Of a stretch of DNA of 64,000 nucleotides, positions 5,800 to 49,924 are shown piece by piece (position 1 is the first letter of the stretch; the number at the start of each line of letters is the position of its first letter). The position numbers and the translations under genes are program-made. The stretch spans positions 64,715 to 128,714 of the forward strand of contig JBGVNW010000056.1 of assembly GCA_045125935.1 (NCBI GenBank). Reading direction: 5' to 3'. This DNA is from Bacilli bacterium (GTDB lineage: Bacteria; Bacillota_I; Bacilli_A; RF39; UBA660). The notes beneath the pieces were generated by a model that saw nothing but the letters and a program-made list of their open reading frames with translations, did not search any database and was not told the origin of the DNA.

Positions 5800-6020
5800 A
5801 TGAAAAGAAAAATTAGTTTGTTTGTCATTGCGATAATTTTATTTATAATTTTAATAATTAGCGCATTATTTTTTGATTTTAATAAAGGTGATAATAAAAA
5901 TACAAAGGTTACAGTTGCGGAAGTTGCCCATACTATTTTCTATGCACCACAATATGTTGCAATTGAGAATGGATATTTCGAAGAATATGGTATTGATGTT
6001 AGTCTCGTATTGGCAAATGG
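5800..6020 (+). pseudogene. ABC substrate-binding protein (NMT1/SsuA-like), 5' fragment cut by the ICE
   Basis: RBS AGGAGA, then signal/TM MKRKISLFVIAIILFIIL, then VAHTIFYAPQYVAIENGYFEEYGIDVSLVLANG. The frame continues precisely at 31052. Confidence 0.85.
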
Positions 6021-6046
6021 TGTGAAGTCATAAAGTGTAATCAATT

Positions 6047-7606
6047 TTAATTGTTACTAAATTTATAATAAATATTTACTTCTCTATCTTTCGATACTGT
6101 TATTTTTTCTATTAATTGAAACATTAGTTCTCTGTCTGGTTTTTGATTTAGAAATTTTTCTGCAAGTTGTTTGGAGTTTATACTATTTAAATTTTTTTTG
6201 TTTTTTTGTTCTACCATCTTATCTAGTTTTTTATTTAAATCTTGTAATTCATTTTCTGTGTTTTTCGATAACATTATATATGTTTCTTCGCTAAGTATAC
6301 CCTTAAATTTATCTTCGTACAAACATTTAATTTTTCTTTCTAATTCTCTTTTTTCTTGTTCTAATTGTTTTTGGTTGCTAAAATCTTCTTCTTGTTTTCG
6401 ATATTGCTGTATTGTTTCTATGCCATCTATTATTTTACTTGTCTGAATTTTTCTACATTGAATTTCAATCAATTTTAGTATTTCTTTTTCAAGTATTTCA
6501 TACGAAATAAAATGTGATGTACAGAACTTATTTTTTGCATTCCTAGTATATCTATTACAATTCATAGTGTAGTGAATTTTATTTTTGTTTCTTTTATCTA
6601 TTCTTATTCCTAGTAGGCAACCACATTCTTCACAAAAGACTAGACCTTCTAATAATTGTTTTTCACGATCCGTTCTTAGATGTTTTCTTTTCTCAGGATG
6701 TGTATTTGCTAATTTATATTCTTCTTCAGTCACTATTGCTTGATGAGTGTTTTTTACTTCTATCCATTGACTCTTATCTAATACAATTCTTTTTTTTGAT
6801 TTATAATTCAATTTTGCTTGAACACCTTGAACCATATTTCCAGTATACATTTTATTTGCTAATATCTGATAAACTGAACTCGCTGTCCATACTTCTGGGT
6901 TTCTATACCTTTTTGCAATTTTTATATTTTTATAAATTATTGGTGTAATGGTATTTTCTTGATTTAATATATATGCTATTGTTTCATTACTTTTATTTTC
7001 TAGTGCTAAATCAAAAATTCTGCGTACTATTGGAGCTGTTTTTTCATCAATTATTAGTTTATGTTTATTGTTTGGGTCTCTCTTATATCCAAAAGCAGTG
7101 CTGCTTCCTAAAAATAAGCCTTGTTTTTTTCTATCTCTTAATATTGATCTTATTTTTTTTGAGTTGTCTTTACTTTGCATATCATTAAAAAGTGCTTTAA
7201 ATGGTGCTATGTCATTATTAGTACTGTCTATTGATGTATCTATATTATCTAATATTGAAACATATCTTACTTTCTTCATAGGAAAATATTGTTCTAAGTA
7301 GTACCCACTTTGAATATAATCCCTTCCTAATCTAGACAAATCTTTAGTTATAACCATATTGATTTTCCCGTCTTCTATGTCTGAAATCATTCTATTAAAA
7401 GAAGGTCTATCAAAAGTTGTTCCACTAAATCCATCATCAACATATTCTTTTGTTAATATTAAATTGTTATCTCTTATATATGATAATAATAAACTTCGTT
7501 GATTCATTACACTTTCACTTTCAGATTCTCTTTGTTTTTTTTCATCTTCTTTTGATAATCTAATATATATTGCTACTTTATAATTGTTATTATCAATGTT
7601 TAACAT
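6047..7606 (-). CDS. large serine recombinase (ICE integrase)
   Basis: 519 aa. The N-terminal resolvase domain has VAIYIRLSKEDE, VITKDLSRLGRD and NQRSLL. A recombinase/zinc-ribbon region follows (CEECGC...CNRY), then a C-terminal coiled coil. RBS GAAAGGAGA. The stop is 26 bp from the element end. Confidence 0.9.
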   Translation of the reverse strand: MLNIDNNNYKVAIYIRLSKEDEKKQRESESESVMNQRSLLLSYIRDNNLILTKEYVDDGFSGTTFDRPSFNRMISDIEDGKINMVITKDLSRLGRDYIQSGYYLEQYFPMKKVRYVSILDNIDTSIDSTNNDIAPFKALFNDMQSKDNSKKIRSILRDRKKQGLFLGSSTAFGYKRDPNNKHKLIIDEKTAPIVRRIFDLALENKSNETIAYILNQENTITPIIYKNIKIAKRYRNPEVWTASSVYQILANKMYTGNMVQGVQAKLNYKSKKRIVLDKSQWIEVKNTHQAIVTEEEYKLANTHPEKRKHLRTDREKQLLEGLVFCEECGCLLGIRIDKRNKNKIHYTMNCNRYTRNAKNKFCTSHFISYEILEKEILKLIEIQCRKIQTSKIIDGIETIQQYRKQEEDFSNQKQLEQEKRELERKIKCLYEDKFKGILSEETYIMLSKNTENELQDLNKKLDKMVEQKNKKNLNSINSKQLAEKFLNQKPDRELMFQLIEKITVSKDREVNIYYKFSNN

Positions 7607-7651
7607 TATTCTCCTTTCTGCATAACATTTTAAGTTAGCTTAATCTTACCA

Positions 7652-7756
7652 TTACTTTTTAGATTCTAAAAATCTACAAAAATATACTTTGATATATTCG
7701 AGCATTATATTTTCAATACTTTTATTTGTATTTGAAAAATGTTCTTTAAATATCAT
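7652..7756 (-). CDS. 34-aa ORF immediately upstream of the ICE recombinase
   Basis: Own translation MIFKEHFSNTNKSIENIMLEYIKVYFCRFLESKK, with strong RBS AAAGGAGGG. It is too short for the track. Confidence 0.3.
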   Translation of the reverse strand: MIFKEHFSNTNKSIENIMLEYIKVYFCRFLESKK

Positions 7757-7769
7757 AAAGCCCTCCTTT

Positions 7770-7955
7770 TTATTTATTGAGGTTTTTAATTCTGATTGTA
7801 ACTTTTGGTTTTTCTTTATTCATTTCTTCTATATCTAGTAATTTACTATTTATTATTGTATCTTTTACTATTCTGTTGGCTTCTCTTCTATTTTTTGCCT
7901 CTACTTCCATTTTATTTATTTGTGTTCGTTTTATTAACACTTCATATTTATTCAT
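7770..7955 (-). CDS. DpnD/PcfM-like small conjugative-element protein
   Basis: RBS GGAGGA precedes the internal ATG. MNKYEVLIKRTQINKMEVEAKNRREANRIV matches my recollection of the DpnD/PcfM pattern (K-Y/F-E-V...VEVEA...EA..IV). Confidence 0.45.
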   Translation of the reverse strand: MNKYEVLIKRTQINKMEVEAKNRREANRIVKDTIINSKLLDIEEMNKEKPKVTIRIKNLNK

Positions 7956-8267
7956 TTTTCCTCCATTATATTTCAAATTGTTTGAGCGATATTTTTCCTA
8001 TCTCCTCACTCAAGGAATTTATCAAACGACTAGCTGCTTACTAGTTCCATAAGTCATTGCCTCTTTGTGGAACACACAAAGCCGCTCCCATTGTTTTATT
8101 CTATGGCTAAGCGGAAGTATCATTATCACTATTACTTATCATCGCAATATTAGAAGCAATCTAATTTTATAGTCAGATATTTATCGCAAGCGTATCTACT
8201 AATGTGCTCCAAGTAATAGAATTGTGTTTGATAAATGAACATTAAATTTTCAAAGAACATCCATTTA

Positions 8268-8299
8268 CTAAAAATGGTGAGAGTTTTTTTGCTCTCACC
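8268..8299 (-). terminator. intrinsic terminator after the sigma-factor-like gene
   Basis: Stem ggtgagag (8276-8283) pairs with ctctcacc (8292-8299), followed by atttttag on the minus strand. Confidence 0.55.
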
Positions 8300-8330
8300 A
8301 TATACCTGACTAAAACTTAATTTGTGTAGT

Positions 8331-8822
8331 CTATTTTTTCATTTTTTTAATTATTTTTTCTAAAGCAATATCCACACTAAATTTTACAGCTCTTTTTGTG
8401 CATTTTTCTTCTCTTGCTATTTGTTCAAACGATTTATCTTCATAATAATACTTTTTTAATCGTCTTTTCTGAATTTCTGGTAGTTCATCAATATATTTTT
8501 TTAATCTTTCATTTATAATATTTTGCTCTGCAATTTCTTCTATTGAGGATGTGTTGTTCATCAAACTGTGAAAAATAATAATTTCTGATTCTTCCGTATT
8601 ATCCATAATTCTATAATCTCTGTGTAAATCATCTTTATTCATTTGTGATAAATCATGTAATTCAAATTCATTAAATGCATTATAAACTTCTATACTAATT
8701 TCAACATCTAGTAGCTTTCCTCTGCTGTCCTTAAATGATACACTATATTTATTACTCGATTCATCGCTATATAGCGTGTAAGGATTATCTTTGCTTTTTC
8801 TTCTTTTTGGACGTGTTCCCAT
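8331..8822 (-). CDS. sigma-70 region-4-type HTH protein (ICE regulator)
   Basis: RBS GGAGGAAA precedes MGTRPKRRKSKDNPYTLY at 8822. The C-terminus LPEIQKRRLKKYYYEDKSFEQIAREEKCTKRAVKFSVDIALEKI looks like a sigma region 4 HTH. Confidence 0.6.
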   Translation of the reverse strand: MGTRPKRRKSKDNPYTLYSDESSNKYSVSFKDSRGKLLDVEISIEVYNAFNEFELHDLSQMNKDDLHRDYRIMDNTEESEIIIFHSLMNNTSSIEEIAEQNIINERLKKYIDELPEIQKRRLKKYYYEDKSFEQIAREEKCTKRAVKFSVDIALEKIIKKMKK

Positions 8823-10254
8823 TTTATTTCCTCCAATCAATTTTTTTGATTGGAGATTTGGAGGGGCTCTACATTTGATACTCAGTTTTTTAGCAACAAA
8901 AAAAGTCAAATTTATTCTTAAATAAAATAAATTTGACTTTGTTATCGGTTAATTTGATGATTGTATATATAATTAATATATTGAACATAAGCACCGTACC
9001 AATTTTTAACAATGCTAAAAATTGTTAGAAGGTACTGCTTAATATCTAACTTCAAAATAAAATATGGGAATACTGTATTACAACAATTCTGTAAACAGAG
9101 TGCTATCCCCCTTTAGCACTGCCTTTGTGAATTATTATACTATTATTTCCATATTTTTCCAGTAAAAGTATATTGTGTCTTGATTTTTTAAATTTTAAAT
9201 TTATTGTAGATAAATTTAAAATTTCCCATAACCTTCCTGTTGTCTTGTTTTTTTATATTATAGTTTTGTGTTATTGGTACTTTTAATAGTACTTCTTTTA
9301 TTTTCTGAATAATTTATTTTATATGCTTTGTATGTAAGAATGATGTTTAGTTTTTGTAAGTTCATCATATTATGTATTATCATTCTTTTTATATTTTCAT
9401 AGTAAAGATTACTAAGTAATTGATAATAACAATTATTTAATTGTATTTAAACAGTAATTATTTTATTTATATATTCTAATTTTGATTTACATTTTGTGTT
9501 CAATAACTGCGTATGTGATTTTATTATATCTTCTATGTTTTTTGTATTTTTAGACAATACATACTTTATTTTGATAGTCTGCTATACGATGTAGATATTA
9601 TGTAAGAACTGTCTTCTAATACATGATTCAAATTTTCCCTTTCAAAAATTACATTATATATTAATAAAAAACGACTCTAAAAATATAATTAATTTATTTA
9701 TTTGTTTTTTATTAAGAATTACATTCTGAGTTTTTAGATTATTAAGTGTATTATTTATATCATCGTTCATTTGTACTTCCCCGCTCTCAAAGTAAAACAG
9801 CAATACAAAACAATTTGTATTGCTGTTTATGAGTAATTTAACTTATTTTTTATTACAGCATCATGTGCAGACTAAAACTAAATCAATGGATATTCGACTA
9901 TATTTTTTTGTTATATGCTATATTGAAAGCGAAATATTTGAATGTTATTTAAAGAAGCAATCAGTAAAGGCATTTTACAGTTATGTGATAAAAATAATAT
10001 AATATCTAAATAGACTTGACTAACTATAAACTATACCATCCACTACTTTCAAAGATACAATTAATAATAGAGTTAATAATTCTAGTACAGTTGTTATCTA
10101 TAAAATATATATAACTTTGAATATGAATCTAATTTTTTACACGAATTTATTCTTATCAGAACTTGATAATTAATCCTATAAACAAGCATTTATAATGAAC
10201 ATAATTACAATAGCGAAAAAACATTATGTTCATTAAATTATAGAAAATTAATGA

Positions 10255-10938
10255 CTAATTATTTTTACAGTATGTATCATAAAATTTCGATGGTAAAAAT
10301 AATTTTATATTAATTATAATCAATATAAAAATAGAAATAATATAAACAGAAAATGATATAGTAGATAAATTTTTAAACAACGATGCAAATATTATAAAAA
10401 TTGGAATCAAACTTAACAATTTTTTACTATTATTTAAACTAAACAAATTTAATGACAAAATAACTAATAATAGCATATTGATAGTAAACATCAAATCAAT
10501 AGCCATAATATAAATATAACTTGTAAATTCAATACTGGATTCAAATAATACAAAACAAGACAATACTACTAAATTAAGTATTACTCTCATTATAAAGATA
10601 TAAAATATAAAATTTGTTATTTCAAGCAACATCCATTTTTTTTTATTTATTCTGATCATTATATATTCAATAGTGTTATTTATGCTATCAACAAACACCT
10701 TAACAATAAGATATATTGTAATTAAATATGTCATTGCTTTTATTAAAATATCAAAAATATTTGCTTCGTTTATACTACCCAAACCTAAAATATAAGAATA
10801 TCGTTTTAAATCAAAATATGCTATAGCACTTCCATTTATGAAGATATATGTAAAAATAAATAGTAACTGCATTAAATAAAATTTTAATATACTACTTTTA
10901 AATTGCATTTTGTTTTTCAAAAATAAATATTTCATCAA
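10255..10938 (-). CDS. ABC-2-type permease-like membrane protein (LanG-like position)
   Basis: 227 aa with about 6 TM helices. It is the last gene of the ATPase-permease-permease string. Confidence 0.5.
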   Translation of the reverse strand: MMKYLFLKNKMQFKSSILKFYLMQLLFIFTYIFINGSAIAYFDLKRYSYILGLGSINEANIFDILIKAMTYLITIYLIVKVFVDSINNTIEYIMIRINKKKWMLLEITNFIFYIFIMRVILNLVVLSCFVLFESSIEFTSYIYIMAIDLMFTINMLLLVILSLNLFSLNNSKKLLSLIPIFIIFASLFKNLSTISFSVYIISIFILIIINIKLFLPSKFYDTYCKNN

Positions 10939-10943
10939 AACAC

Positions 10944-11702
10944 CTACTCATCAATTTTTATTTTATTAAATTTAATTAATAAATATATAAATAAAGCAAG
11001 TAATAAAAATAATAAACATATAAATATTATTGTATGAGATACTTCTAAATTAAAAGAAGCAAATTGAGCAGAAGTTAGATAATATTTAAAATTCAAACTC
11101 TTAATTGAAAAGTGACTAATTATATTTGATGATATGGGATGGCAATAATAAAGAGCCAAAATTATCAAGTAATATACATATCCAATTATTTTACCCCCAA
11201 ATTTATGTGCACAAATACCTATCAGCGACAGAATATTAATAATTATAAAATATTTTACTATGGTAAAGATACTATATGTTACATATGATATATTATAATA
11301 TTCAACATTTGAAAAGGTCATTAATCCAAAATATTTAAATGTAACAAATAATATTCCAATGACAATTGCTGATAAAAAGATTATAAAATTACCGATGGAT
11401 ATAGAAATTAAAAGTCTTTTTAAATAATCTATTTTATCATTAAATCGCAGTAGGGTCGAATAATCTTTATCAAATGATTCAAGAAATATACAAGACGATA
11501 CAAATACTATACTAATTAGTGGAAATAAAAATATTGAACTACTGATATAATTGAATAGAGCCTCAGAATAAGATATACTTGGTAAAATATTAAAAAAGCT
11601 AAAAAAACATGCCGAAAATATGGTTAAAAATATGATTTTAAATTTTTCCATATCTAAAATATACTTCACTCGAGAGAAATTAATTTTTATGCTATTTAAC
11701 AT
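10944..11702 (-). CDS. ABC-2-type permease-like membrane protein (LanE-like position)
   Basis: 252 aa with about 6 TM helices. Its start overlaps the end of the ATPase gene, suggesting translational coupling. Confidence 0.5.
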   Translation of the reverse strand: MLNSIKINFSRVKYILDMEKFKIIFLTIFSACFFSFFNILPSISYSEALFNYISSSIFLFPLISIVFVSSCIFLESFDKDYSTLLRFNDKIDYLKRLLISISIGNFIIFLSAIVIGILFVTFKYFGLMTFSNVEYYNISYVTYSIFTIVKYFIIINILSLIGICAHKFGGKIIGYVYYLIILALYYCHPISSNIISHFSIKSLNFKYYLTSAQFASFNLEVSHTIIFICLLFLLLALFIYLLIKFNKIKIDE

Positions 11703-12333
11703 TGTATTTTCTCAATTTACCAGACTCAAACATATATGTTTCATCCGCTAATTCCTTAATATCATCTTTAATATGACTCGTTATTATTATTATTTTATCT
11801 TCTTTTTTCATTTCTCTAAGTAATTTTTTTATCTTTTTTACTGAAACTTCATCGATTCCACTAAAAGCCTCGTCTAAAATTATAACTTGTGGATTTTCCA
11901 TAATCACTTGTGCTATGCCCAATTTTTGCTTCATTCCTAAAGAATATTCACCATATTTTTTATCTTTTTCTTGAAATAAGAAACATTTTTTTAGAGCTTT
12001 AAATATATCATTATCAGATATCTTATTTTGAATAGATGCTAATAATCTTAAATTTTCGTATCCTGTCAAATTCGGAATAAAATTAGGTCCTTCTATTAAT
12101 GCCCGTGTGTCCTTTGGAAATGAATTTGCCTTGATATAGTCAAAACCATCTTGTAAAATACAGCCATCTGTAGGTATATAAAAAGCACATAACATCTTTA
12201 AAAATACACTTTTACCTGAACCATTTGGTCCGATTATTCCATATATTTTTCCAGATTCAAAAGTGATGTTAACATTTTCAACAACTGTTACCTTTTTAAA
12301 CTTTTTTGTTAAATTTTTAACTTCAATCCTCAT
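11692..12333 (-). CDS. ABC transporter ATP-binding protein
   Basis: Walker A GPNGSGKS, signature YSLGMKQK, Walker B IILDEAFSGID and H-loop ITSH. 213 aa. Confidence 0.9.
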   Translation of the reverse strand: MRIEVKNLTKKFKKVTVVENVNITFESGKIYGIIGPNGSGKSVFLKMLCAFYIPTDGCILQDGFDYIKANSFPKDTRALIEGPNFIPNLTGYENLRLLASIQNKISDNDIFKALKKCFLFQEKDKKYGEYSLGMKQKLGIAQVIMENPQVIILDEAFSGIDEVSVKKIKKLLREMKKEDKIIIITSHIKDDIKELADETYMFESGKLRKYNVK

Positions 12334-12341
12334 ATTTCTCC

Positions 12342-13289
12342 CTATCTTTCACACATATTAATTAATTGTTCTTTATTGGCATAAGAACGTACTGCTATAA
12401 ATAGAGTTACAATAAACAGTACTATATTAAATCCCAGGTGTACATACATATTATCAATACCACTCCAAGTATATAAATTCATTAAATTGAAATTGTCTGG
12501 ATTAATTTCAAAATAATAATTACCTATATTACCAAATACTATAATACTAAAACACCATATAAAAAAAATAAATAGTTCGCTCTCTAATAAGGCAATAATA
12601 AAATTCTTAGTTCTACTTTGTACTATTAGGCCTATGTTTATATACAATCCCATTCCTAAAAATAATGTTAGAAAATAAATAAAAGGAAATGCTTTATTGT
12701 CAATGAATAATAAATTTGGTAGCACATAATTAAATCCAATATCTGCCGCAGGATTCATATTTCCTCCTGAAACAATAAAGGAAATTAAAAATGTTATCGC
12801 TATAATAATTGGAATAAAAAATATATTTTTATATGCTGTCTTAAATATATATTTTATGTATTGCCTGTAATTTTCACGTAAACAATAATTAGTGATTACC
12901 TTATTTTTAAATTCTCTTGATATTATATATACAAAAGGAAAAATCACTATTATTGGAATGAAAACTGGAAATAAAAAGCTTTCTTCAATAAAAAATTCAT
13001 CAAATGTATTATAGGTACTATTAGGCGGACTTCCGTATGAAACATATTTATTACACTCATCATCATTTAAATCAAAATCTTTATTTTTCTTTATAAGTTT
13101 CTCTTTCTCTGATTGAGTCGCTGAAGATAAATAAGTTTCACAAAGAGAGTACTGCTTATTTTCCCAAGACTGACCTTCTTTAGTGTCTTTTACTAATTTT
13201 CCCCAGCAAAGGACATAGTATATTATAAAAAGAACACACATAATTGCAACCAATTTACTACTAAAAATTAGATATTTTTTATATTTCAT
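12342..13289 (-). CDS. polytopic membrane protein with a large first extracytoplasmic loop (ABC-2-like accessory permease)
   Basis: 315 aa. TM1 is followed by a hydrophilic loop of about 80 aa and then about 5 TM helices. Confidence 0.45.
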   Translation of the reverse strand: MKYKKYLIFSSKLVAIMCVLFIIYYVLCWGKLVKDTKEGQSWENKQYSLCETYLSSATQSEKEKLIKKNKDFDLNDDECNKYVSYGSPPNSTYNTFDEFFIEESFLFPVFIPIIVIFPFVYIISREFKNKVITNYCLRENYRQYIKYIFKTAYKNIFFIPIIIAITFLISFIVSGGNMNPAADIGFNYVLPNLLFIDNKAFPFIYFLTLFLGMGLYINIGLIVQSRTKNFIIALLESELFIFFIWCFSIIVFGNIGNYYFEINPDNFNLMNLYTWSGIDNMYVHLGFNIVLFIVTLFIAVRSYANKEQLINMCER

Positions 13290-13342
13290 AAACTTTTCTC
13301 CTATTAAAGTAATAGAAATTATATTTCGCCTATTTTTTTAAT

Positions 13343-13744
13343 TTATTGGTCTAAATACCAAACACCACTGTGTCCAGCAGTGCATGGACTAAAAACGTCA
13401 TTTCTTATATATAAATTGTAAGCGTCAGCAGTATGAGTGCTGCCAGGATTATTTGACCAACTGCTAGTTGCACTATCAGAAACTTTTATCCAAGCTGATT
13501 CTCCACCTCTTTCAGATTCAACCATAACTTCAATTGTGTTACGATTGGAAGTACAACTATTTACTGTTCCTAAATTATAGTATGCCTGTGGACCAGAGCT
13601 TGTTTTTGTTTTGGGTCCTAATTGAGTTTCACCACTTAGTGCTTTTAATGTAATACTATAGTGGCCAGTAGTTGCAAAAGCTGAAATACCTGTTGCCAAA
13701 ATTGTGACTATTAATATTCCTAAAGTCAATTTAACATATTTCAT
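13343..13744 (-). CDS. small secreted protein of unknown function (~108-aa mature, 2 Cys)
   Basis: Sec-type signal MKYVKLTLGILIVTILATGISAFA. The mature part is Ser/Thr/Gly-rich with Cys at SCTSN and SPCTAG. It is the first gene of the cargo operon. Confidence 0.6.
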   Translation of the reverse strand: MKYVKLTLGILIVTILATGISAFATTGHYSITLKALSGETQLGPKTKTSSGPQAYYNLGTVNSCTSNRNTIEVMVESERGGESAWIKVSDSATSSWSNNPGSTHTADAYNLYIRNDVFSPCTAGHSGVWYLDQ

Positions 13745-13822
13745 TATTTTTCAACATCCTTTCACTTAGCGAGAATATAATTTCTATTAACTCTCGTATA
13801 TCATATTTTTTCTGCAATGTCA

Positions 13823-13856
13823 ATATTTTCCTAGATATAATATTTTCCTAGATATA
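13823..13856 (-). promoter_or_regulatory. perfect 17-bp tandem direct repeat x2 abutting the -35 of the cargo operon promoter
   Basis: atattttcctagatata occurs at 13823-13839 and again at 13840-13856. On the minus strand the repeats are followed by TTGACA, a 17-nt spacer, then TATACG preceded by TGa (extended -10), about 50 nt before the 13744 start. Confidence 0.55.
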
Positions 13857-14070
13857 ATACTTGTGAATAAAGGAAATAAGAAGCAATGCGTAAGAATTTT
13901 TTTGACAATTTATAATGAAGAAATAATATTTTACAATAACTTTATTTTGTATAATATTGTTTTAAAAGGATGTTTTAAGTTTTTTGCTAAAATATCTAAA
14001 AAATCAAATTTATAATTTTATTCTAATGATTCTGCTTCTTATTTTTAATCCATAATTATATACGTTTTAG

Positions 14071-36226: not shown

Positions 36227-36247
36227 AAATTTCTATAATTAACTATT

Positions 36248-38571: not shown

Positions 38572-38594
38572 ACGAATTACTCCTTTCACAAACG

Positions 38595-38623: not shown

Positions 38624-38652
38624 CATTTTTAAAGAAATTGGTGCTAAAATGC

Positions 38653-39125: not shown

Positions 39126-39126
39126 A

Positions 39127-40080: not shown

Positions 40081-40324
40081 TTTTCATAAAAGTTTTTGTT
40101 AACTTTTTTCTAAAAAGTTATATAAGTAAAAAATGAGTGTGGCACGTTTTGTTGCTTTAGCAATGAAAGTGGCGATAACGAATATTTTTACAATTATTAA
40201 ATGTAGTTTATCTACTTTTAATAATTCATTAAATAATAAGTATCTAGTAGATAGTTATTATTTAATCTTGTTTATAGCATTTGCCTTTACGATTAGTTTA
40301 GGCATTTGTGAAGAACAAGCATAA

Positions 40325-40394
40325 GGGGTCTTTAGGGGAATCACCTAAACTCACGATTGGGCTATGCCCTAGTGAGATAGGTCTAAAAGACCTC
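40325..40394 (+). promoter_or_regulatory. candidate oriT: long imperfect compound hairpin upstream of the MobV gene
   Basis: The outer stem is ggggtctttag (40325-40335) with ctaaaagacctc (40383-40394). The inner stems are ctcac (40350-40354) with gtgag (40372-40376), and gggc (40359-40362) with gccc (40366-40369). It ends 36 bp before the mob start. Confidence 0.35.
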
Positions 40395-40429
40395 TTTTAC
40401 AAAGATGCAATAACGAAAGGAGGCAAAAA

Positions 40430-41869: not shown

Positions 41870-42097
41870 TTAATAAATTCTCTCTCTTAAACTATAAGTA
41901 GCAATAACTATATATAAAATATAAATATTATAAATTTTAAAAAAATTGAAAAATGTACCAAAATTTTATCCCTAAGTATAAAGAAGTAAAAACGAAAGTG
42001 AGGATTGATATTATGAATAAAACAAAGTACAAAAATAATAAACATTACTGCTATATTAGTTTAAAATCACACTTTAAATAATATATTTAAATTAGAG

Positions 42098-42238
42098 GTG
42101 AGCTTTATAAATATAGTCTATAATGTTAAAGAAGTAGTAAATAAAACTATAACCGATAACGATTTAAAAGAGATTATAAATAAAAAGTTGTTAAATATTA
42201 TATTATTTATGGAAACTTGCACAAATGAGTGTAATTAA
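42098..42238 (+). CDS. possible 46-aa ORF upstream of the IME recombinase
   Basis: Own translation from GTG: VSFINIVYNVKEVVNKTITDNDLKEIINKKLLNIILFMETCTNECN. The RBS-like AGAGGTG overlaps the start codon, so the start is doubtful. Confidence 0.2.
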   Translation: MSFINIVYNVKEVVNKTITDNDLKEIINKKLLNIILFMETCTNECN

Positions 42239-42309
42239 ATGGTATAATTGTATTGGTTATAAGTTTAACTTGATAAGTAATTATTGCCTTAAGTTAGGAG
42301 GTAATAGTT

Positions 42310-43923
42310 ATGAATGAAATGGAGAGTGTTAGAGAGAAGATATTATTAAGAGTTGTTATTTATTTAAGATTATCAAATGAAGATAGAGATAAAATTAATA
42401 AAGATGATGATAGTGAATCTATTAAAAATCAAAGAAATATGTTGCTAGATTATATCGATAAAAATCCACAATTTATGTTGGTTGATGAATATTGTGATGA
42501 AGATTTATCGGGGGCTGGTACTTATAGACCTGAATTTGAAAGATTAATTAGAGATTGTGAAAATGGGAAAATTGATGTAGTTTTATGTAAAAGCCAATCT
42601 AGATTTTCAAGAGATATGGAAATCGTTGAAAAGTATATTAACAATAAATTCAAAGAATGGAATATAAGATTTATCGGTTTATCTGATAATGCTGATACTG
42701 ACAATAGCGGTAATAAAAAATCAAGACAAATAAATGGATTAGTTAATGAATGGTATTTAGAAGATGTTTCAGATAATATTAGAAGTGCTTTTAATTCAAA
42801 AATGAAGCAAGGAGAATTCATTTCTCCTTTCGCCTCATTTGGTTATGAAGTATCTAAAGAAGATAATAACAAGTTAGTTGTTGATCCTGTTGCTAGTGAA
42901 GTTGTTAAAGAAATATACGATTTATATTTAAAAGGTATGGGATTTACTGGAATAGCTCATTACTTAAATGATAAAAATATTCCTTGCCCCTCTCTTTATA
43001 AATATAGAAAAGGTATTAAATTAAATGTAATTAGTAATAGACCTAGAGAGGAAATTAAATGGAATACAAATGCTATTAAAACAATATTAAAAAATGAATT
43101 ATATTTAGGACATTTAATTCAAGGAAAAAGAACTACCGTTAGTTATAAAAATCATAAAGTAATTAATAAACCTGAAGATAAATGGATTCGTAGAGAAAAT
43201 ATGCACGAAGCTATAATTGATGAGGAAACATTTGCAAAAGTTCAAATTGCTTTGAAAGAAAGAACAAAACCTATGAAATCAACAGGAATTGTTCATAACT
43301 TCTCTGGCAAAGTATTTTGTAAAGAATGTGGTCGCTATATGAGAAAAAAGAATTCTTCTAAACATGAATATCTTGTATGTTCTAATAACAGAGATGGTTA
43401 CAATGATTGTATAAATAAAGCAGCGATTAGGTATGATGCTTTAGAGGAATTAGTATTAAGTCATATTAATAAAAAAGTTAAAAAGTTTTATGATTTAAAT
43501 ATTTTAGAAACAGAATCTTTGAAAAAAGAAAATAATAAGTTCACTAAAAGAATTAATTTATTAACAAAACAAAAAGAGACCATAGTTAATCAAATGGCAA
43601 AGACTAAAAATTATTTAAAAAATCTTTATGAAGATAAAGTTAATGGAATAATTAATGCAGAACAATTTAAAGAATTAATTACTAATTATAATAATGATGA
43701 TGAAAAGTTAAAAGACCAATTAAAATCTATTGAAAATGAGATTAACTATTATACACTAAAAGAATCTTCAAATAAAAATACAAAAGAATTATTTAATAAA
43801 TATCAACAATTAGAAAAATTAAACAGAGTTATAGTAGATGAATTTGTAGATAAAATCTATATCGGCAAAATCAATGAAGAAACAAATACAAGAGATATTG
43901 AAATTAAATGGAATTTTGAATAA
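42310..43923 (+). CDS. large serine recombinase (IME integrase)
   Basis: 537 aa with RBS AGGAGG. VVIYLRLSNEDRD, NQRNML and LCKSQSRFSRD form the resolvase domain. A zinc-ribbon region (CKECGRY...CSNN) and a C-terminal coiled coil follow. Confidence 0.9.
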   Translation: MNEMESVREKILLRVVIYLRLSNEDRDKINKDDDSESIKNQRNMLLDYIDKNPQFMLVDEYCDEDLSGAGTYRPEFERLIRDCENGKIDVVLCKSQSRFSRDMEIVEKYINNKFKEWNIRFIGLSDNADTDNSGNKKSRQINGLVNEWYLEDVSDNIRSAFNSKMKQGEFISPFASFGYEVSKEDNNKLVVDPVASEVVKEIYDLYLKGMGFTGIAHYLNDKNIPCPSLYKYRKGIKLNVISNRPREEIKWNTNAIKTILKNELYLGHLIQGKRTTVSYKNHKVINKPEDKWIRRENMHEAIIDEETFAKVQIALKERTKPMKSTGIVHNFSGKVFCKECGRYMRKKNSSKHEYLVCSNNRDGYNDCINKAAIRYDALEELVLSHINKKVKKFYDLNILETESLKKENNKFTKRINLLTKQKETIVNQMAKTKNYLKNLYEDKVNGIINAEQFKELITNYNNDDEKLKDQLKSIENEINYYTLKESSNKNTKELFNKYQQLEKLNRVIVDEFVDKIYIGKINEETNTRDIEIKWNFE

Positions 43924-44056
43924 AATTCAAAAATAAAAAAGGAAATTCAAAACTTTTGTAGAATAATATAAGTGAGAGGTTATACACTTCTATAACCTTT
44001 TGCTTAATACATATTTTAATACATATTAAAAATATATAGTAAAGGATGGTGAATAA

Positions 44057-44914
44057 ATGAAACAAGATAATATGCATTTAATTAATAAAATATTTAACAA
44101 TGAAACAATTAGAACTATTTGGGATAAGGATGAAGAAAAATATTATATTAGTATCGTTGATATTGTTGGTGTTTTAGCTGATAGTAAAGAACCTAGAAAA
44201 TATTGGAATTGGTTAAAAAATAAGTTATTAAAAGAAGAAAATTTTGAAACGTCTAGTATTACTAGACAGTTGAAATTAAAAGCTACTGACGGTAAATATC
44301 GTATGACTGATGTTTGTGATATTGAAGGTATGTTTAGAATAATTGAATCTGTGCCTAGTAAAAATGCTGAACCTATAAAACAATGGTTAGCTCATTTAGG
44401 TAAAGAAAGAATTGATGAAGTGTTTGACCCATCATTAACAATGCAAAGAGCAATAGATACATATCGTGCTAAAGGTTATGATGAGGCATGGATTTCTAAA
44501 AGAATTAAAGGCATTCAAGAAAGAAAAAGATTAACTGATGTTTGGAAAGATGGAGGCGTTGAAAAAACTCGCGAATATGCAATGCTTACTAATGAAATAT
44601 ATAAAAGTTGGTCAGGTATGAAAGCAAATGAATACAAACAATTTAAAGGAATTAGAAAAGAATCTTTACGAGATAATATGACTGATATAGAAGTTCTACT
44701 TACTGATTTAGGCGAAATCGCTACTCGTGATATAGCAGAATCTGAACATCCACAAGGATTTAAAGAAAATATGAAAGTAGCTCGTAAAGGTGGACAAGTT
44801 GCTAATGATGCTAGAAAATCTTATGAGAAAGCAATTAAAAAATCGGCTATATCAAATCAAAATGCTTTAAATTATCAATATATAGATGATAAAAAACAAA
44901 TAGAAAATAAATAA
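44057..44914 (+). CDS. Bro-N-domain protein
   Basis: 285 aa. FNNETIRTIWDKDEEKYYISIVDIVGVLADSKEPRKYW fits the Bro-N pattern. It lies between the recombinase and the right end. Confidence 0.55.
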   Translation: MKQDNMHLINKIFNNETIRTIWDKDEEKYYISIVDIVGVLADSKEPRKYWNWLKNKLLKEENFETSSITRQLKLKATDGKYRMTDVCDIEGMFRIIESVPSKNAEPIKQWLAHLGKERIDEVFDPSLTMQRAIDTYRAKGYDEAWISKRIKGIQERKRLTDVWKDGGVEKTREYAMLTNEIYKSWSGMKANEYKQFKGIRKESLRDNMTDIEVLLTDLGEIATRDIAESEHPQGFKENMKVARKGGQVANDARKSYEKAIKKSAISNQNALNYQYIDDKKQIENK

Positions 44915-45049
44915 CTCTGTTCCCGACAATTTGTCGGAAAGTAATAAAAATCTTAAAAATACAAGTTAAACATAAAAAAGCGAAATTTTAAAAGCCTTAT
45001 TTTTCAAGGCTTTGATAAGGTATTAGTGTCTACATTATATTCGTAGAGT

Positions 45050-45211
45050 TGCTTTAATTAGGACACTAGCAATGAAACCGGATATATTACTTTTGGATGA
45101 GCCAATGTCTGCGTTAGATTCTCAGTCAAGACTTGCAATTAGTGATGACATATATAAAATTATCAAAAAAGAAGGTAAAACTGCTGTTATGGTTACACAT
45201 GATATTGCTGA
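45050..45211 (+). pseudogene. ABC importer ATPase, fragment 2 of 3 (Walker B to H-loop)
   Basis: ALIRTLAMKPDILLLDEPMSALD...GKTAVMVTHDIAE. It is only 162 nt and is bounded by two different elements. Confidence 0.9.
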
Positions 45212-45261
45212 GACAATCTTCTTAATTAACATAAATGTTTTATAAAAAAAAAGAAGATTTC

Positions 45262-46800
45262 TTATTCTTCGTAAAATTTTATATTTATTATTTCGACCTT
45301 ACCTTTTACTTTATCTCTATCTTTATTTACTACAACTATTTCTTCTATAAAATTTGTTAAAAAATCAAATTTTTCTTTATTAGATAGATATTTCCAATGT
45401 TCTTTTATTGTTTTGGGAATTTTTACATTATCTTTATTTTGTTTAGGTAATATAACTTTTTCCAATCTATCAATTTCTTCTTTTAATCTTTGACTTTTCT
45501 TATTTAATTCATCAGTCATATATTTTAATTGTTTATCAGTTATTTTATTTATCATGAATAAGTCCATTACTTCTTTCTTTTTTGCGGATGTTTGGCCAAG
45601 AAATTTTTTTAAAGTTTTTAATTCTTCTATTTCAGCATCATTTTCTTTAATTTCAACTTTGTCTATTTCAGTTAATGCTTCAATATTATTTATATAATTC
45701 ATAAATGCTTTCTCTACTTTAGAATGACTCATCCCCAAACAGATGCATAATTTCTTTTCTCTATTAATACATCGATAGCTATTGAAGACCATTTTTGTTC
45801 CGTCTTTTTTATTTTTATTTGTCCTACTACTGGTTAATTTTTTTCCACAAAGTCCACAAACTAGTGTTCCACAATAATAAACGTCTTCCTTAGGAAGATT
45901 GGTACGATGTGACTTTTTTATTTTATGAATTTTCTCTTGAACTTGATACCATGTTTTTTTAGAAATGATTGGTTTATGTTTTCCATCTGTAATAAGTTCA
46001 TCTTCTTTTCCTATATGATATCTTACTTTTCCTATATATGTAGGATTAGTTAAAATGAGACGAATTGTTTTAGGTACCCATATACTATTAATAGTATATT
46101 TTTTACCTGTTTTACGTTGTTTTACTACTCTACCGGCATTTTTAGTAGGAATTTTTTCCGCATTTAAAATATTACATATTTCTGTAAAGCTTTTGCCTTC
46201 TATATACATTTTAAAAATACGTTTTACTATTTTCGCTTCAGCTTGATTAATTGTCTGCTCTTTTTCATGTATTTTACGATTATAGCCATAACATGTTGTG
46301 GCACAAGCTAGTGTATAACCTTGTTTTACTTTTTCCTCAAGTGCTACTTTTATTCTTTCAATTGTTTGTTCTCTTTCTAGCTGCGCTACTGCACCATTAA
46401 TTCTGACTGAAAATCTGCCTGTTGCGGTAGAAACATCTACTGTTCCTCCAGCTAGTGTAAATACTTGTATTCCATATTGCTGTATTAATTCAATTATATT
46501 TTCCGTATCTTTGCTATCACGTGTTAATCTGTCAAATTTATATAATACAACTACATCAATTTCTTTTTTTTGAATATCATTGATTAGTCTTTTTACCGCT
46601 GGTCTATCTTTAATATTTTTTCCACTTTTACCTTCATCGGCATATATATCAAATATTTTAAAGCCTTGCTGCTTGGCAAATTTACTTAAATTTTCTTTTT
46701 GTGCAGAAACAGAATATCCTTCTTTTACTTGTTTTTCAGTTGATACACGTATGTATAAACCAGCATTTATTAATTTTTCTGTAATAATAGATTCCTCCAA
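45262..46800 (-). CDS. large serine recombinase (mini-element integrase)
   Basis: 512 aa. AGLYIRVSTEKQ, YSVSAQ and VLYKFDRLTRD form the resolvase domain. A Cys-rich zinc ribbon (CGLCGKK...CINREKKLC) and a coiled coil follow. The TTG start lies 4 nt after the stop of the 32-aa ORF. Confidence 0.9.
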   Translation of the reverse strand: MEESIITEKLINAGLYIRVSTEKQVKEGYSVSAQKENLSKFAKQQGFKIFDIYADEGKSGKNIKDRPAVKRLINDIQKKEIDVVVLYKFDRLTRDSKDTENIIELIQQYGIQVFTLAGGTVDVSTATGRFSVRINGAVAQLEREQTIERIKVALEEKVKQGYTLACATTCYGYNRKIHEKEQTINQAEAKIVKRIFKMYIEGKSFTEICNILNAEKIPTKNAGRVVKQRKTGKKYTINSIWVPKTIRLILTNPTYIGKVRYHIGKEDELITDGKHKPIISKKTWYQVQEKIHKIKKSHRTNLPKEDVYYCGTLVCGLCGKKLTSSRTNKNKKDGTKMVFNSYRCINREKKLCICLGMSHSKVEKAFMNYINNIEALTEIDKVEIKENDAEIEELKTLKKFLGQTSAKKKEVMDLFMINKITDKQLKYMTDELNKKSQRLKEEIDRLEKVILPKQNKDNVKIPKTIKEHWKYLSNKEKFDFLTNFIEEIVVVNKDRDKVKGKVEIINIKFYEE

Positions 46801-46804
46801 ACTT

Positions 46805-46903
46805 TTATTTCTTTAGCATTTTAGGTATTGATGTTTTCCAAAAAAATTCTATCATTTTGATTTGAAGTTTTTTAGGAAGAATAATTTTATCTTTATTTTT
46901 CAT
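46805..46903 (-). CDS. 32-aa ORF translationally coupled to the recombinase
   Basis: Own translation MKNKDKIILPKKLQIKMIEFFWKTSIPKMLKK, with RBS AGGTGA. Confidence 0.35.
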   Translation of the reverse strand: MKNKDKIILPKKLQIKMIEFFWKTSIPKMLKK

Positions 46904-46992
46904 TTTTCACCTACTTAATTTTATGTGGTGATTTTTAATAAATTGTAAAAAAACAGTTCTTTTATTTAGAACTGTTTAATACTATTTAAAAA

Positions 46993-48486
46993 TTAATTTT
47001 CTTCTGGAATATCTTCTTCGTCGTTATCTTCATCTTTCTTGCTATCTATATATATTTTAGTACTTATTCCAGCTACTGCGGCTAAGCCTATACCTTCTAA
47101 AAATGGACCTGTTTCAATTTTTCTTGTTCCTGGTTTTTCATTTATTCTAGGTATTACATAATCGTTTTCGCTAGTTTTACTAGTTGTTGTATTTTCATAG
47201 CTACTTGCAATTTTACTTAGGCTTCCTGCTAAAGCCATTGAATTTTTATTGAAACTTTCTGTTGGGCTTTGAGTAGTTGTCTGATTATCAGTTAAATTAT
47301 TTGCTATAAAATTATTTATTTTTTCTCCTAGTAAAGTCAGGTTATTAGTGTTATTAGTTGTTGTTTGTGTTTGAGTTGTTTGAGTATTATCACTAAATGA
47401 GAAAGTTGAACTTATATTTGACTTTATTTCTGAAATTTTCTCAGTAGCTGGATTATTTGTGAGTGTATCTTTTATTTCTGAAAGTTTTTCAGTAACCGGA
47501 TTATCAATAATTGCGTCTTTTATAACGTCTGTAAGTGATTTTTCGGTGCTTGCACTTACAGATGTTAAACTAGTCGGTACTGATAAAGTTGTTTGGCCAC
47601 CATTTGATTGACTGGCACTAATCATTGTTTTTCCTGTTGTATGTGAACTAATACATGCTTCATCATTGCAGTATCCAACATGATGATATTCTCCATCCTC
47701 ATGCCATGCTGTATAGATATCATACCAAACCTCTACATCGCCTTCTGCAGTTCCTTTGAGCTCTCCTTTTCTGACCATTTCTGCCATCCCGCATAGGTCT
47801 ACTACCATTCCTGTTCCAAGGCTTGTTTCAACAAGATCCCCTTTTCTGTACTCAGCAGCTTGCTCAGTTCCGTCCATATGGGGAATATCTGCAGCGACCA
47901 TGACGTAGTCACCATACATATATACTCCGTCTTCTCGTATCCAGAAATCTAAATCAATTCCTTGTTTTCTCATAAGTGTTGCTAAGTTACTTGGATCTAA
48001 GTCACACCAAGTTTCTTTAGTTAATCTACCATCTGCGCCATAATATTTAATACTTCCTACGGCCGCAGTAAGAAAATTAGAATCCCATTTTGGATTTACT
48101 CCATATTTTTCGTAATATTCATCTAATGTATAATTTATTCTTTCTTTATCCAAATTATATCTTCTTGCGGTATTAGGATCTGCAATAATTATTGCATCAT
48201 CACCCAAAATTACTTTTCCATCATTGTACTTTTCAAGTTCTCTAGTTATAACACTAATTGTATTTTGCATTTGTTCTACTGCCGAAGATACTACATCACC
48301 TTTTTCTATATAAGGAATACCTCGATTGTAGCCTGAACTATTAATTCTAGAAATTCCGCGTTCGATTTTCTTTGATATATCTTCAAGGATGTCTTGGGCA
48401 TCTTCAAGTTTTTCTATTCCTTGTTCTACATAAGCAGGTATATAAACTATTTGATCCTTATTTATCAAATTGATTACACTATTCAT
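46993..48486 (-). CDS. 497-aa multi-domain protein: helical N-terminus, central globular domain, Thr/Ser/Asn-rich linker, C-terminal TM + acidic tail
   Basis: It has no Sec signal. The N-terminal ~95 aa are helical. The central region (about 100-290) has VAADIPH...GDLVETSLGTGMVVDLCG...VEVWYDIY, faintly like a 3D/double-psi-barrel fold. TTQTQTTTNNTNN is low complexity. The TM is GPFLEGIGLAAVAGISTKIY, followed by DEDNDEEDIPEEN. Confidence 0.6.
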   Translation of the reverse strand: MNSVINLINKDQIVYIPAYVEQGIEKLEDAQDILEDISKKIERGISRINSSGYNRGIPYIEKGDVVSSAVEQMQNTISVITRELEKYNDGKVILGDDAIIIADPNTARRYNLDKERINYTLDEYYEKYGVNPKWDSNFLTAAVGSIKYYGADGRLTKETWCDLDPSNLATLMRKQGIDLDFWIREDGVYMYGDYVMVAADIPHMDGTEQAAEYRKGDLVETSLGTGMVVDLCGMAEMVRKGELKGTAEGDVEVWYDIYTAWHEDGEYHHVGYCNDEACISSHTTGKTMISASQSNGGQTTLSVPTSLTSVSASTEKSLTDVIKDAIIDNPVTEKLSEIKDTLTNNPATEKISEIKSNISSTFSFSDNTQTTQTQTTTNNTNNLTLLGEKINNFIANNLTDNQTTTQSPTESFNKNSMALAGSLSKIASSYENTTTSKTSENDYVIPRINEKPGTRKIETGPFLEGIGLAAVAGISTKIYIDSKKDEDNDEEDIPEEN

Positions 48487-48499
48487 AGTTATCTTCTCC

Positions 48500-48802
48500 T
48501 TACAATTCTTTCTCTTCTTGACTTCTTAACCATGCCATATATTCTTCATATTGTGCTTGGGCATTTGCTCTTATTGTTGTAGTTACACCGTCATTTATTT
48601 GGCTACACTTTTGAACTTGAGTTTTTAATAAATCAAGTTCTGCATCAAGTGAGGAGTTGATATCACCAAATTGTAAATTATTACAATTTAAAAGACTCAT
48701 GGCATTATCAATGCCACTTTTTACATTATTAAACATCTCTATTGCATTATCTATTTCTGAACAACCTGCTTCTACTGCTGCTAAATCAACATACTGTGCC
48801 AT
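48500..48802 (-). CDS. WXG100-like ~100-aa helical-hairpin protein (motif degenerate: QFGD)
   Basis: 100 aa with two predicted helices either side of NLQFGDINSSL. It lies 13 nt upstream of the 497-aa gene. Confidence 0.5.
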   Translation of the reverse strand: MAQYVDLAAVEAGCSEIDNAIEMFNNVKSGIDNAMSLLNCNNLQFGDINSSLDAELDLLKTQVQKCSQINDGVTTTIRANAQAQYEEYMAWLRSQEEKEL

Positions 48803-48826
48803 TTTATCACATCCTTATATACTTAC

Positions 48827-48856
48827 TTTATTATTCTTTATTATTCTTTATTATTA
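48827..48856. repeat. 10-bp tandem repeat x3 in the 5' leader of the WXG100-like gene
   Basis: tttattattc, tttattattc, tttattatta. It sits between the putative promoter (TTGACC on the minus strand) and the RBS. Confidence 0.6.
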
Positions 48857-48977
48857 TTTTAACATTTTTATGGTCAAGTGAAAATATTTAATTTTTATTT
48901 GTTATATTTAAGTGTAAATTTTAACTAAATTGTTTCTATTTTGACATTTTGGTTATGCTTATAAAAACTATTGGTGA

Positions 48978-49149
48978 GGCTATAAGTATGTCAGATAAAA
49001 TTGTTGTTTTATCTAAGAGGCCAGCTATTGTAAAGAACATTTATGAAATTGAATTAGATAATAAATCTACTCCTATTAATAATCGTAGTTCTAAAAACTT
49101 TTCTTCATACTATGAAGCGATTTGGAGGGATTTAGATGTCCATATCTAG
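48978..49149 (+). pseudogene. ABC importer ATPase, fragment 3 of 3 (C-terminal)
   Basis: AISMSDKIVVLSKRPAIVKNIYEI... The fragments of 416, 162 and 172 nt sum to 750 nt, or 250 codons. Confidence 0.9.
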
Positions 49150-49924
49150 AGAAAAATATTTAAAAAAATTACGCAAAGAAACTTTTTTAGTTAGCTTATT
49201 TAGATTTTTATTAATATTGGTATTTATTGTTGGATGGGAAGTTTTAGCTAGAATTGGAGTTATTAATACTTTTACATTTTCTTCACCTAGTCGGGTTATA
49301 GAAACTATTATCGATTTGGTTAAACAAGGTAATTTATTTTCACATATTGGTGTTACTATATATGAAACCTTACTTAGTTTTTTTCTAGCTACAGTAATTG
49401 GATTAGGTGTTGGAACTTTATTATGGAGTAGTCCATTAGTTTCAAGAATTGTTGATCCATATCTAACAATACTTAATTCTCTTCCTAAAGTTGCACTTGG
49501 ACCACTTATAATTATTTGGGTTGGTGCTAGTACTAATTCAATCATATTTATGTCTTTACTTATTAGTACATTTATTACTATTATTAATATTTATAATGGT
49601 TTTAATAGTACTGATAAGAGCTATATAACATTATTGAAAAGTTTTGGTGCTAGTAAATGGCAAATATTTCGAAAGGTTGTTTTCCCAAGTAATTATGCTA
49701 CTATTATTAGTGCTTTGAAAGTCAATATTTCAATGAATTTAATTGGAGTTATTATGGGAGAATTACTCGTCTCTAAAGAAGGAATTGGATATTTGATTAT
49801 GTATGGATCACAAGTATTTAATATTGATTTAGTTATTACTGGAGTATTTATTTTAGGAATTATTTCTTATTTAATGTATTATGTCATTAATAAATTAGAA
49901 CTGTTTGTTTTAAGGTATAAATAA
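49136..49924 (+). CDS. ABC importer permease (NitT/TauT family)
   Basis: 262 aa with 6 TM helices and an EAA-like loop (ITLLKSFGASKWQIFRKVVFP). Its start overlaps the stop of the ATPase gene. Confidence 0.85.
   Translation: MSISREKYLKKLRKETFLVSLFRFLLILVFIVGWEVLARIGVINTFTFSSPSRVIETIIDLVKQGNLFSHIGVTIYETLLSFFLATVIGLGVGTLLWSSPLVSRIVDPYLTILNSLPKVALGPLIIIWVGASTNSIIFMSLLISTFITIINIYNGFNSTDKSYITLLKSFGASKWQIFRKVVFPSNYATIISALKVNISMNLIGVIMGELLVSKEGIGYLIMYGSQVFNIDLVITGVFILGIISYLMYYVINKLELFVLRYK

Follow-up and report, generated by a model that had tools for sequence, protein, structure and literature searches.

In a 64,000-nucleotide stretch of contig JBGVNW010000056.1 from an uncultured gut Bacilli bacterium (assembly GCA_045125935.1, positions 64,715 to 128,714; hereafter the window, ~26% G+C, numbered from its first letter), an operon for an ABC importer is interrupted by three different mobile elements. 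Each element carries its own large serine recombinase (LSR) and interrupts a coding sequence that in-silico removal makes whole again, as an earlier note on this DNA had read the structure. Comparison with related genomes leads us to consider it very probable that this chromosomal operon, of the nitrate/sulfonate/taurine (NitT/TauT) importer family, is a multi-site landing pad in which each site has its own LSR lineage, and that the triple occupancy of the window is the extreme of a common polymorphism. The operon encodes a substrate-binding protein (SBP), an ATPase and a permease, and is arranged with its three insertions, among them an integrative and conjugative element (ICE) and an integrative and mobilizable element (IME), as follows.

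5800..6020 (+): SBP gene, 5' fragment, codons 1-74, NMT1/THI5-like, NitT/TauT family
6021..31051: element 1, a 25,031-bp ICE at SBP codon 74, with GG at both junctions
6047..7606 (-): LSR1, 519 aa, 26 nt from attL of element 1
31052..31823 (+): SBP gene, 3' fragment, codons 74-330
31813..32228 (+): ATPase gene, 5' fragment, 416 nt, ending at the signature motif LSGGMRQRV
32229..45049: element 2, a 12,821-bp IME at ATPase codon 139
42310..43923 (+): LSR2, 537 aa, with a C-terminal DUF4368
45050..45211 (+): ATPase gene, middle fragment, 162 nt, from Walker B to the H-loop, with element 2 on one side and element 3 on the other
45212..48977: element 3, a 3,766-bp minimal LSR island at ATPase codon 193
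45262..46800 (-): LSR3, 512 aa, in element 3, the gene ending 50 nt from the junction
48978..49149 (+): ATPase gene, 3' fragment, 172 nt including the stop
49136..49924 (+): permease gene, intact, 262 aa, BPD_transp_1; its insertion site at codon 205 is empty in the window

Removal of segments 6021-31051 (25,031 bp), 32229-45049 (12,821 bp) and 45212-48977 (3,766 bp), together 41,618 bp of inserted DNA, rebuilds both interrupted genes. As it stands, the frame of the 5' SBP fragment runs three codons into element 1 and then meets a stop; joining 5800-6020 to 31052-31823 gives a 993-nt open reading frame (ORF) of 330 aa that reads LVLANG/ADKVTAAVL across the junction (the slash marks the break here and below). 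Similarly, joining 31813-32228, 45050-45211 and 48978-49149 (416+162+172 = 750 nt) gives a 249-aa ATPase that is continuous across both the signature motif (LSGGMRQRV/ALIRTLA) and the H-loop (VTHDIAE/AISMSDK). Pfam assigned the SBP to NMT1/NMT1_2, the ATPase to ABC_tran and the permease to BPD_transp_1, and NCBIfam placed all three in the NitT/TauT importer family; no NCBIfam equivalog model scored above its cut-off for any of the three, an exact-sequence look-up of the permease returned no match, and Rfam found no riboswitch in the region upstream of the operon. We scanned species representatives (one genome per species) with the rebuilt ATPase and obtained 80 loci, mostly from bins of uncultured gut "Bacilli/Tenericutes/Mollicutes". 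In many of these, intact homologs cover residues 1-249 of the rebuilt ATPase at 70-78% identity, and at the same loci the SBP aligns over residues 1-330 and the permease over 2-262. The core gene tsaD lies within a few kb of the operon in 35 loci, indicating that the operon is chromosomal and not itself cargo. The coordinates and fragment lengths given in the earlier note all hold when the junctions are read and the fragments joined in silico; excision of the elements yields the 993-nt and 750-nt frames that it had foreseen, and the full-length alignment that it had proposed as a check shows both encoded proteins matching intact homologs end to end, at 76-78% identity.

The three recombinases share the N-terminal Resolvase, Recombinase and zinc-ribbon architecture that defines LSRs, with matches to PF00239 (Resolvase), PF07508 (Recombinase) and PF13408 (Zn_ribbon_recom) above gathering score in every case. 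Pfam thereby confirmed the earlier claim of a distinct LSR in each interruption. Predicted catalytic R-x-S motifs are present near the N-termini (YIRLS, YLRLS and YIRVS), and the DUF4368 of LSR2 corresponds to PF14287 (E = 7.8e-06). The sequences that attL and attR have in common are GG (element 1), AGAGTT (element 2) and TGAG (element 3), compatible with the cores previously proposed (GG; GT within AGTT; GA within TGAG), and the deduced attB junctions of the window elements read GGCAAATGG/CGCCGATAAGG, CAAAGAGT/TGCTTTAATT and ATTGCTGA/GGCTATAAG. Inverted-repeat ends had been claimed for all three elements. Shuffled controls upheld them for element 1, whose score was reached by 1.4% of 500 shuffles, and for element 2 (0 of 500), and did not do so for element 3. 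The ends of element 3 are backed by frame restoration and by a continuous site in a related locus, L081, and its P' arm motif, AATTAACAT, recurs at fixed spacing in homologous elements of other species. Immediately upstream of the LSR genes are small conserved ORFs, candidate genes for directionality factors. Their products measure 61-63 aa and 34-35 aa in the LSR1 lineage (window 7770-7976 (-); L173:3652-3955; L180:3621-3958), 41 plus 32 aa in the LSR2 lineage and 32 aa for LSR3. Further loci with small ORFs upstream of the recombinase are L186:3804-4008 and L091:9898-9996.

Interruptions of this operon recur in over 50 further contigs of related gut Bacilli. These breaks fall at six fixed codons, and a serine recombinase gene always lies beside the break. 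The sites and their state in the window are listed here.

SBP74: binding protein codon 74, element 1
SBP146: binding protein codon 146, empty
SBP196: binding protein codon 196, empty
ATP139: ATPase codon 139, element 2
ATP193: ATPase codon 193, element 3
PERM205: permease codon 205, empty

Of the 80 species representatives, 21 have one or more of these sites filled and 4 have two. The operon is thus a recurrent target in the clade, and the earlier description of three elements in one operon as very unusual needs amending. A second set of 80 metagenome loci was found with the rebuilt binding protein; since these loci were chosen by the SBP, they are unbiased for the ATPase sites, and here 8 of 52 had an element at ATP139 and 3 of 41 had one at ATP193. 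Per-site occupancy in the census ranges from ~3% to 16%, and from these frequencies the triple hit can be understood as the tail of independent insertions. Thirty-five LSRs from these insertions form five clusters that follow the sites: PERM205 (11 members), ATP193 (8), SBP196 (11), ATP139 (3) and a joint cluster of SBP146 and SBP74 (2), whose recombinases are 37% identical to each other. Within each site, orientation relative to the target gene is constant. Throughout the 160 loci, every LSR match falls either within an insertion in the operon or immediately next to an operon gene that is truncated. No further match was seen in the flanks of these operon-anchored loci, of which those lacking an LSR match supply 1.16 Mb. 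The junctions, the restored frames, the intact recombinases and the fidelity of LSR lineage to site can all be read directly in the sequences.

The idea that the sites are simply the most conserved DNA was considered and rejected. It fits ATP139, ATP193 and PERM205, which lie in the 95th-99th percentile of conservation within their genes, and fails for SBP146 (58th) and SBP74 (38th); SBP196 stands at the 75th. The elements at the six sites measure between 3.7 kb and more than 10 kb, with highly variable cargo. In sister elements we found hybrid histidine kinases, NikA-like mobilization proteins, an HD-domain protein, a DUF4411 and M78/HTH pair, RhuM and RhuM-Fic proteins, a xanthine/uracil permease, an NAGPA enzyme with a sortase, a Schlafen/AlbA_2 protein, a signal peptidase with DUF5305, restriction-modification genes and an OLD/AriA/GajA-like ATPase. 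This content looks like that of ordinary accessory or defence-type islands and not like a dedicated developmental cassette.

Three further observations concern individual sites. At L047:10729-15412 and L153:5648-10319 the permease appears full length, yet ~3.8 kb downstream its C-terminal ~50 codons occur a second time. The inserted element may bring in a substitute 3' end that preserves the permease; L047 showed no recombinase. One metagenome contig begins at SBP residue 74, the element-1 site (L159:1-60), which may reflect an assembly break at a polymorphic insertion or coincidence. Finally, the PERM205 recombinases of L001, L008, L016 and L026 are short, at 331-460 aa compared with ~510-570 aa at other sites, and may be truncated or decaying copies or the product of wrong start calls.

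Because the census was anchored on the operon, we also searched for homologs starting from each window LSR. All eight homologs with fetched contigs sit at the predicted codon. Homologs of LSR1 at 93% (L173), 72% (L174-L179) and 66% identity (L180) all abut an SBP fragment that ends at residue 74-75. L173 was examined as a possible circular attP junction of an element-1 relative, an idea that was rejected: the ORF that follows its recombinase is the SBP N-terminal fragment, so this is an ordinary attL. In L174-L176 the element is just 4.3 kb long, has the same att arms as the 25-kb ICE and is accompanied by an ATPase that is also cut, at residue 140. The mini-element L174:1267-5574 and window 6021-31051 have 72% identical LSRs and conserved P and P' arms, and the presence of one recombinase-att module in elements of such different size points to exchange of integration modules between elements. 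Homologs of LSR3 at 75%, 69% and 63% identity abut an ABC_tran gene truncated at ~195-209 aa with an adjoining NMT1 gene, and two of their hosts are also occupied at SBP146. In at least 10 other distinct loci, LSR3 homologs of 38-75% identity are found at the same ATPase codon. In L182 and L185 an extra gene lies between the LSR3-type recombinase and the att site, encoding a 355-aa protein in L182 and a 609-aa OLD/AriA/GajA-like ATPase in L185.

LSR2 homologs of 76% and 79% identity are likewise at ATP139 of the same operon, one of them in a host that is also occupied at PERM205, and seven of eight distinct flank contexts of the LSR2 lineage belong to this ATPase family at the same codon. Copies of element 2 at 98.6-100% identity are present in at least 10 metagenome contigs with five different right flanks, which confirms the element's boundaries, and flanks of this ATPase family occur in four versions (the window, L081, L084 and L085). 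At L083:11700-12854 (ERZ28653950 scaffold_2793), a 98.9% identical copy lies in a different, polar-amino-acid type ABC ATPase, again at the QRV/A codon (flank VAIIRTLIMNPEIILFDEPTSSLDPKMVEEV), indicating that LSR2 recognises signature-motif DNA of more than one ABC family. Among LSR2 copies that are at least 98.6% identical there are at most two or three 50%-identity target clusters, in a small sample of five flanks. At the level of sequence, these near-identical copies demonstrate that the IME has spread recently. In L081, flank identity falls to ~70% exactly at the attR core and the ATPase is uninterrupted through the element-3 site. A BLAST block of 99% identity in L081 that ends at 45211 had raised the idea that the 162-bp ATPase fragment travels with element 2; this was rejected, since direct alignment of L081 diverges (~70%) at the attR core. 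The picture of three distinct elements, each inside a coding sequence of one operon, stands; LSR2 is not strictly operon-specific, as L083 shows. The operon of L081, an element-2 host, is followed by a GerA/GerAC/spore-permease germination operon (L081:13510-17265), which suggests that spore formation occurs in at least some of the host species.

Site occupancy also varies within species. Conspecific contigs, with at least 98.7% operon DNA identity, differ in which sites are filled: in one species we see empty versions alongside others filled at SBP196 or at ATP139, and in a second, empty versions alongside others filled at ATP139. Both the empty and the singly occupied sites that the earlier note had proposed to look for in related genomes were therefore found. 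When the L079 element was removed in silico, 128 of 128 nt matched the real empty sites of L152, L163 and L150; once its 5,976-bp element is removed, L186 agrees with L031 at 147 of 148 nt, and the attB of L031 differs little from the element-2 attB deduced in the window. Restored frames in the window and sister excisions that match real empty sites are what conservative recombination at a 2-bp core leaves, attB being restored exactly and no target sequence duplicated. Consistent with this, the earlier claim that excision of all three elements restores the operon holds in silico; the match to a real attB is available for sister elements only. We infer that the three window elements are still able to excise.

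Element 1 is a bounded segment that encodes an integrase together with a relaxase, a coupling protein and a VirB4-type ATPase, the gene set of an ICE. Its transfer genes are as follows.

15552-17867: VirB4-like ATPase, DUF87/AAA_10 (precomputed Pfam)
20323-22176: coupling protein, T4SS-DNA_transf/TraG-D_C, VirD4-type (Pfam)
22958-24319: MobA/VirD2 relaxase (Pfam)

Further Pfam matches in element 1 are a CHAP hydrolase, ArdC, DUF3801, a DUF3991-Toprim primase and ParB_N, and its cargo includes an ABC ATPase/permease set, a sigma-70-type factor and AbiU2. Its surface genes are a thioester-SpaA adhesin (TED-SpaA) and an adjoining sortase-like gene, called from the sortase Pfam match of the equivalent ~215-aa adhesin-adjacent gene in L173-L179. 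Megablast of element 1 against phage records gave no match. An Rfam pemK RNA motif (8047-8126 (-), 38 bits, gathering score 34.8) lies between the LSR1 gene and the sigma-factor gene.

Element 2 combines a relaxase with an LSR and has no type IV secretion system domains among its called genes, as expected of an IME. Megablast against plasmid records gave no match. Its main genes are listed below.

32763-36226 (-): GT2, PMT_2-like and GtrA glycosylation cargo (Pfam/PHROGs)
39106-40080: AAA_25/DnaB_C-like protein (precomputed Pfam)
40430-41869: Mob_Pre relaxase (precomputed Pfam)

Two HTH regulators and a Bro-N-like protein are also encoded, and the GtrA, GT2 and PMT_2-like cassette would modify a surface glycan.

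Besides LSR3, element 3 encodes just two proteins, one of 497 aa that has a membrane anchor at its C-terminus and a helical one of 100 aa. The 497-aa protein matched Pfam (PsV_CP) below gathering score and had no significant match in NCBIfam, PHROGs or PADLOC; the 100-aa protein had a weak PHROGs match (E = 0.0037) and no significant match in Pfam or NCBIfam. With only an LSR and two proteins that lack a significant family match, element 3 does not qualify as an IME. The layout of this cargo (100 aa + 497 aa) resembles that of a cluster directly downstream of the permease (49970-53576 (-)), with no detectable sequence similarity between the two. That cluster encodes three ~100-126-aa proteins that are WXG100/ESAT-6-like by eye, along with 371-aa and 384-aa proteins whose C-terminal parts resemble cell-wall hydrolases; the 371-aa protein is its sole member with family matches, which are weak (SleB, ESAT6_2). 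The cluster may be a type VII secretion substrate cluster.

Several points weigh against the landing-pad reading. Element 3 has no transfer or mobilization genes among its called genes and may be an immobile remnant, and its terminal inverted repeat is not significant (41% of 500 shuffles reach the score). We identified no recombination directionality factor for the window elements. The LSR survey is confined to the ±10-kb flanks of the operon, and sequence conservation accounts for only part of the choice of sites. The SBP metagenome scan yielded no conspecific of the window (best 84%) and hence no same-species empty site. Exact LSR1 and LSR3 sequences were found in sample SRR25030072 alone; its contigs match the window at 100% identity and are probably from the same strain.

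The arrangement could instead have arisen by chance accumulation in a dead operon, the first hit having killed it and elements of relaxed specificity having then landed neutrally at sites not dedicated to them. LSR2 has the DUF4368 that is typical of the multi-targeting TndX-like clade (PMC10083194); a near-identical copy of element 2 occupies a different ABC ATPase in L083; and double hits seem, on a rough reading of small counts, slightly above the expectation from independence. Against chance accumulation stand the fidelity of lineage to site that extends over 38-93% recombinase identity and many species, and the seven of eight LSR2-lineage contexts in one ATPase family at one codon. Moreover, most occupied operons hold a single element, so that a prior hit is not needed. 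The comparative data already make this explanation unlikely, and we give it only a slight probability. An assembly or binning artefact, with fragments and elements misjoined in a metagenome-derived contig, is extremely improbable. The source contig probably does come from a metagenome-assembled genome, and some related contigs break at element ends. Against misjoining, the junctions are exact to the codon and give back three reading frames, junctions of these types are found again in dozens of independent assemblies made in different studies, and the Logan assembly of SRR25030072 is 100% identical over 40148-53923, a match that spans the right end and attR of element 2, the whole of element 3 with both its junctions, and the permease.

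The stop-free rebuilt frames, which persist despite interruption in the window and in other species, and the intact recombinases of the window elements would also fit a programmed, reversible interruption in which conditional excision rebuilds the importer and regulates the operon, as in skin, SPbeta and gin or in active lysogeny. LSR-mediated rebuilding of interrupted genes has precedents (PMC5595907, PMC4191935, PMC5499854), and in L081 the operon adjoins a germination operon of the GerA type. Yet the importer does not count among known sporulation genes, and the cargo is mixed and of the ordinary-island type (genes for conjugation, mobilization and metabolism as well as defence-like genes). 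Other strains of a species simply do not have the elements, the three recombinases, all different, would need to act together, and neither a directionality factor nor a developmental promoter was identified. We therefore regard regulated interruption as very unlikely. It is also conceivable, if rather unlikely, that interruption of the operon is itself selected, as argued for competence genes, and that five lineages converged on it since knock-out or toggling benefits the element or the host. If so, the gain could be loss of a surface-exposed SBP that rival phages or conjugative elements use as a receptor, or switching of the uptake of a gut metabolite, and the operon would be a population-level genetic switch with six independent "off" positions.

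A landing pad served by dedicated LSR lineages has relatives among known systems. Durrant et al. (2022, PMC10083194) describe LSR hotspots, in which a single gene cluster is the target of many LSR clusters that are only distantly related: a Mg-chelatase/ATP-dependent protease gene is targeted by 12.4% of site-specific LSRs, and 33 LSRs share one site in a prolyl isomerase gene. As in those hotspots, distinct LSR lineages are tied here to conserved attB sites in coding sequence, the gene is disrupted and the pattern crosses species. The present case differs in its six sites in three adjacent genes, each with its own lineage and with up to three elements co-resident; the importer operon is not named in the text of PMC10083194 as far as searched. 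The same paper links DUF4368 to multi-targeting LSRs, defined there as a 90%-identity LSR cluster with over three different gene clusters among its targets, and places the TndX/TnpX-type transposases of Tn5397 and Tn4451 in this DUF4368, multi-targeting clade. Like TndX and TnpX, LSR2 has a DUF4368 tail, moves a mobilizable element and is seen in more than one target gene; unlike their dinucleotide-level targeting, LSR2 and its 54-79% identical relatives strongly prefer one codon of one ATPase family.

Streptococcal IMEs with serine integrases insert in traG, maff2 and snf2 of ICEs of the Tn5252 superfamily (Coluzzi et al. 2017, PMC5357655). There too the integrase family tracks the target gene, several neighbouring conserved genes of one module are disrupted, and the IMEs are small, with cargo that varies; their target, however, is the conjugation module of another element, whereas here it is a chromosomal transport operon near tsaD. 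Among gene-intervening elements, skin interrupts sigK, SPbeta spsM and gin gerE (PMC5025042, PMC4191935, PMC5499854, PMC5595907). These carry LSRs, some are small and not phages, and precise excision from within the coding sequence rebuilds the gene, as with the window elements. Their targets are mother-cell sporulation genes, with developmentally timed excision and a known directionality factor, whereas no evidence links the importer or the elements here with sporulation, and these elements are polymorphic in the manner of ordinary mobile DNA. SCCmec-type cassettes use Ccr serine recombinases to insert at one site at the 3' end of rlmH, which is not disrupted. Like the islands described here, they are small, pair a recombinase with variable cargo at one conserved chromosomal gene and can stack; the sites of the window, by contrast, are multiple and lie inside genes. 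The mechanisms themselves are already known, and the operon is a striking case of an LSR target-gene hotspot. New here are the target, a chromosomal importer operon, the count of sites that fit in 2.5 kb, the presence of as many as three elements together, and the host group.

In the landing-pad model, each LSR would catalyse a conservative attP x attB exchange at a short core inside coding sequence. Insertion would truncate the gene, so that the importer could not be made in this strain, and excision, for which both the recombinase and a directionality factor would be required, would precisely restore it. Each window LSR comes from a lineage that occupies the same codon in other species, with at least six operon sites and five LSR clusters across the clade and with elements that come and go within species. 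The operon would be dispensable or needed only conditionally. Most likely, it is targeted since it is conserved across hosts yet cheap to lose, a combination that would have allowed several LSR lineages to specialise on it.

Collectively, these data describe a heavily used and previously undescribed integration platform in poorly known, uncultured gut Bacilli, where roughly one in four of the species sampled has one or more elements in a 2.5-kb operon. They raise the question of why so many recombinase lineages converge on one importer. The six natural attB/attP/LSR sets, which have comparative support, are of interest for recombinase tool discovery, and ABC transporter genes annotated as "pseudogenised" in such genomes may in fact be split by excisable DNA. 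Within this platform, one IME has spread almost unchanged through several host species.

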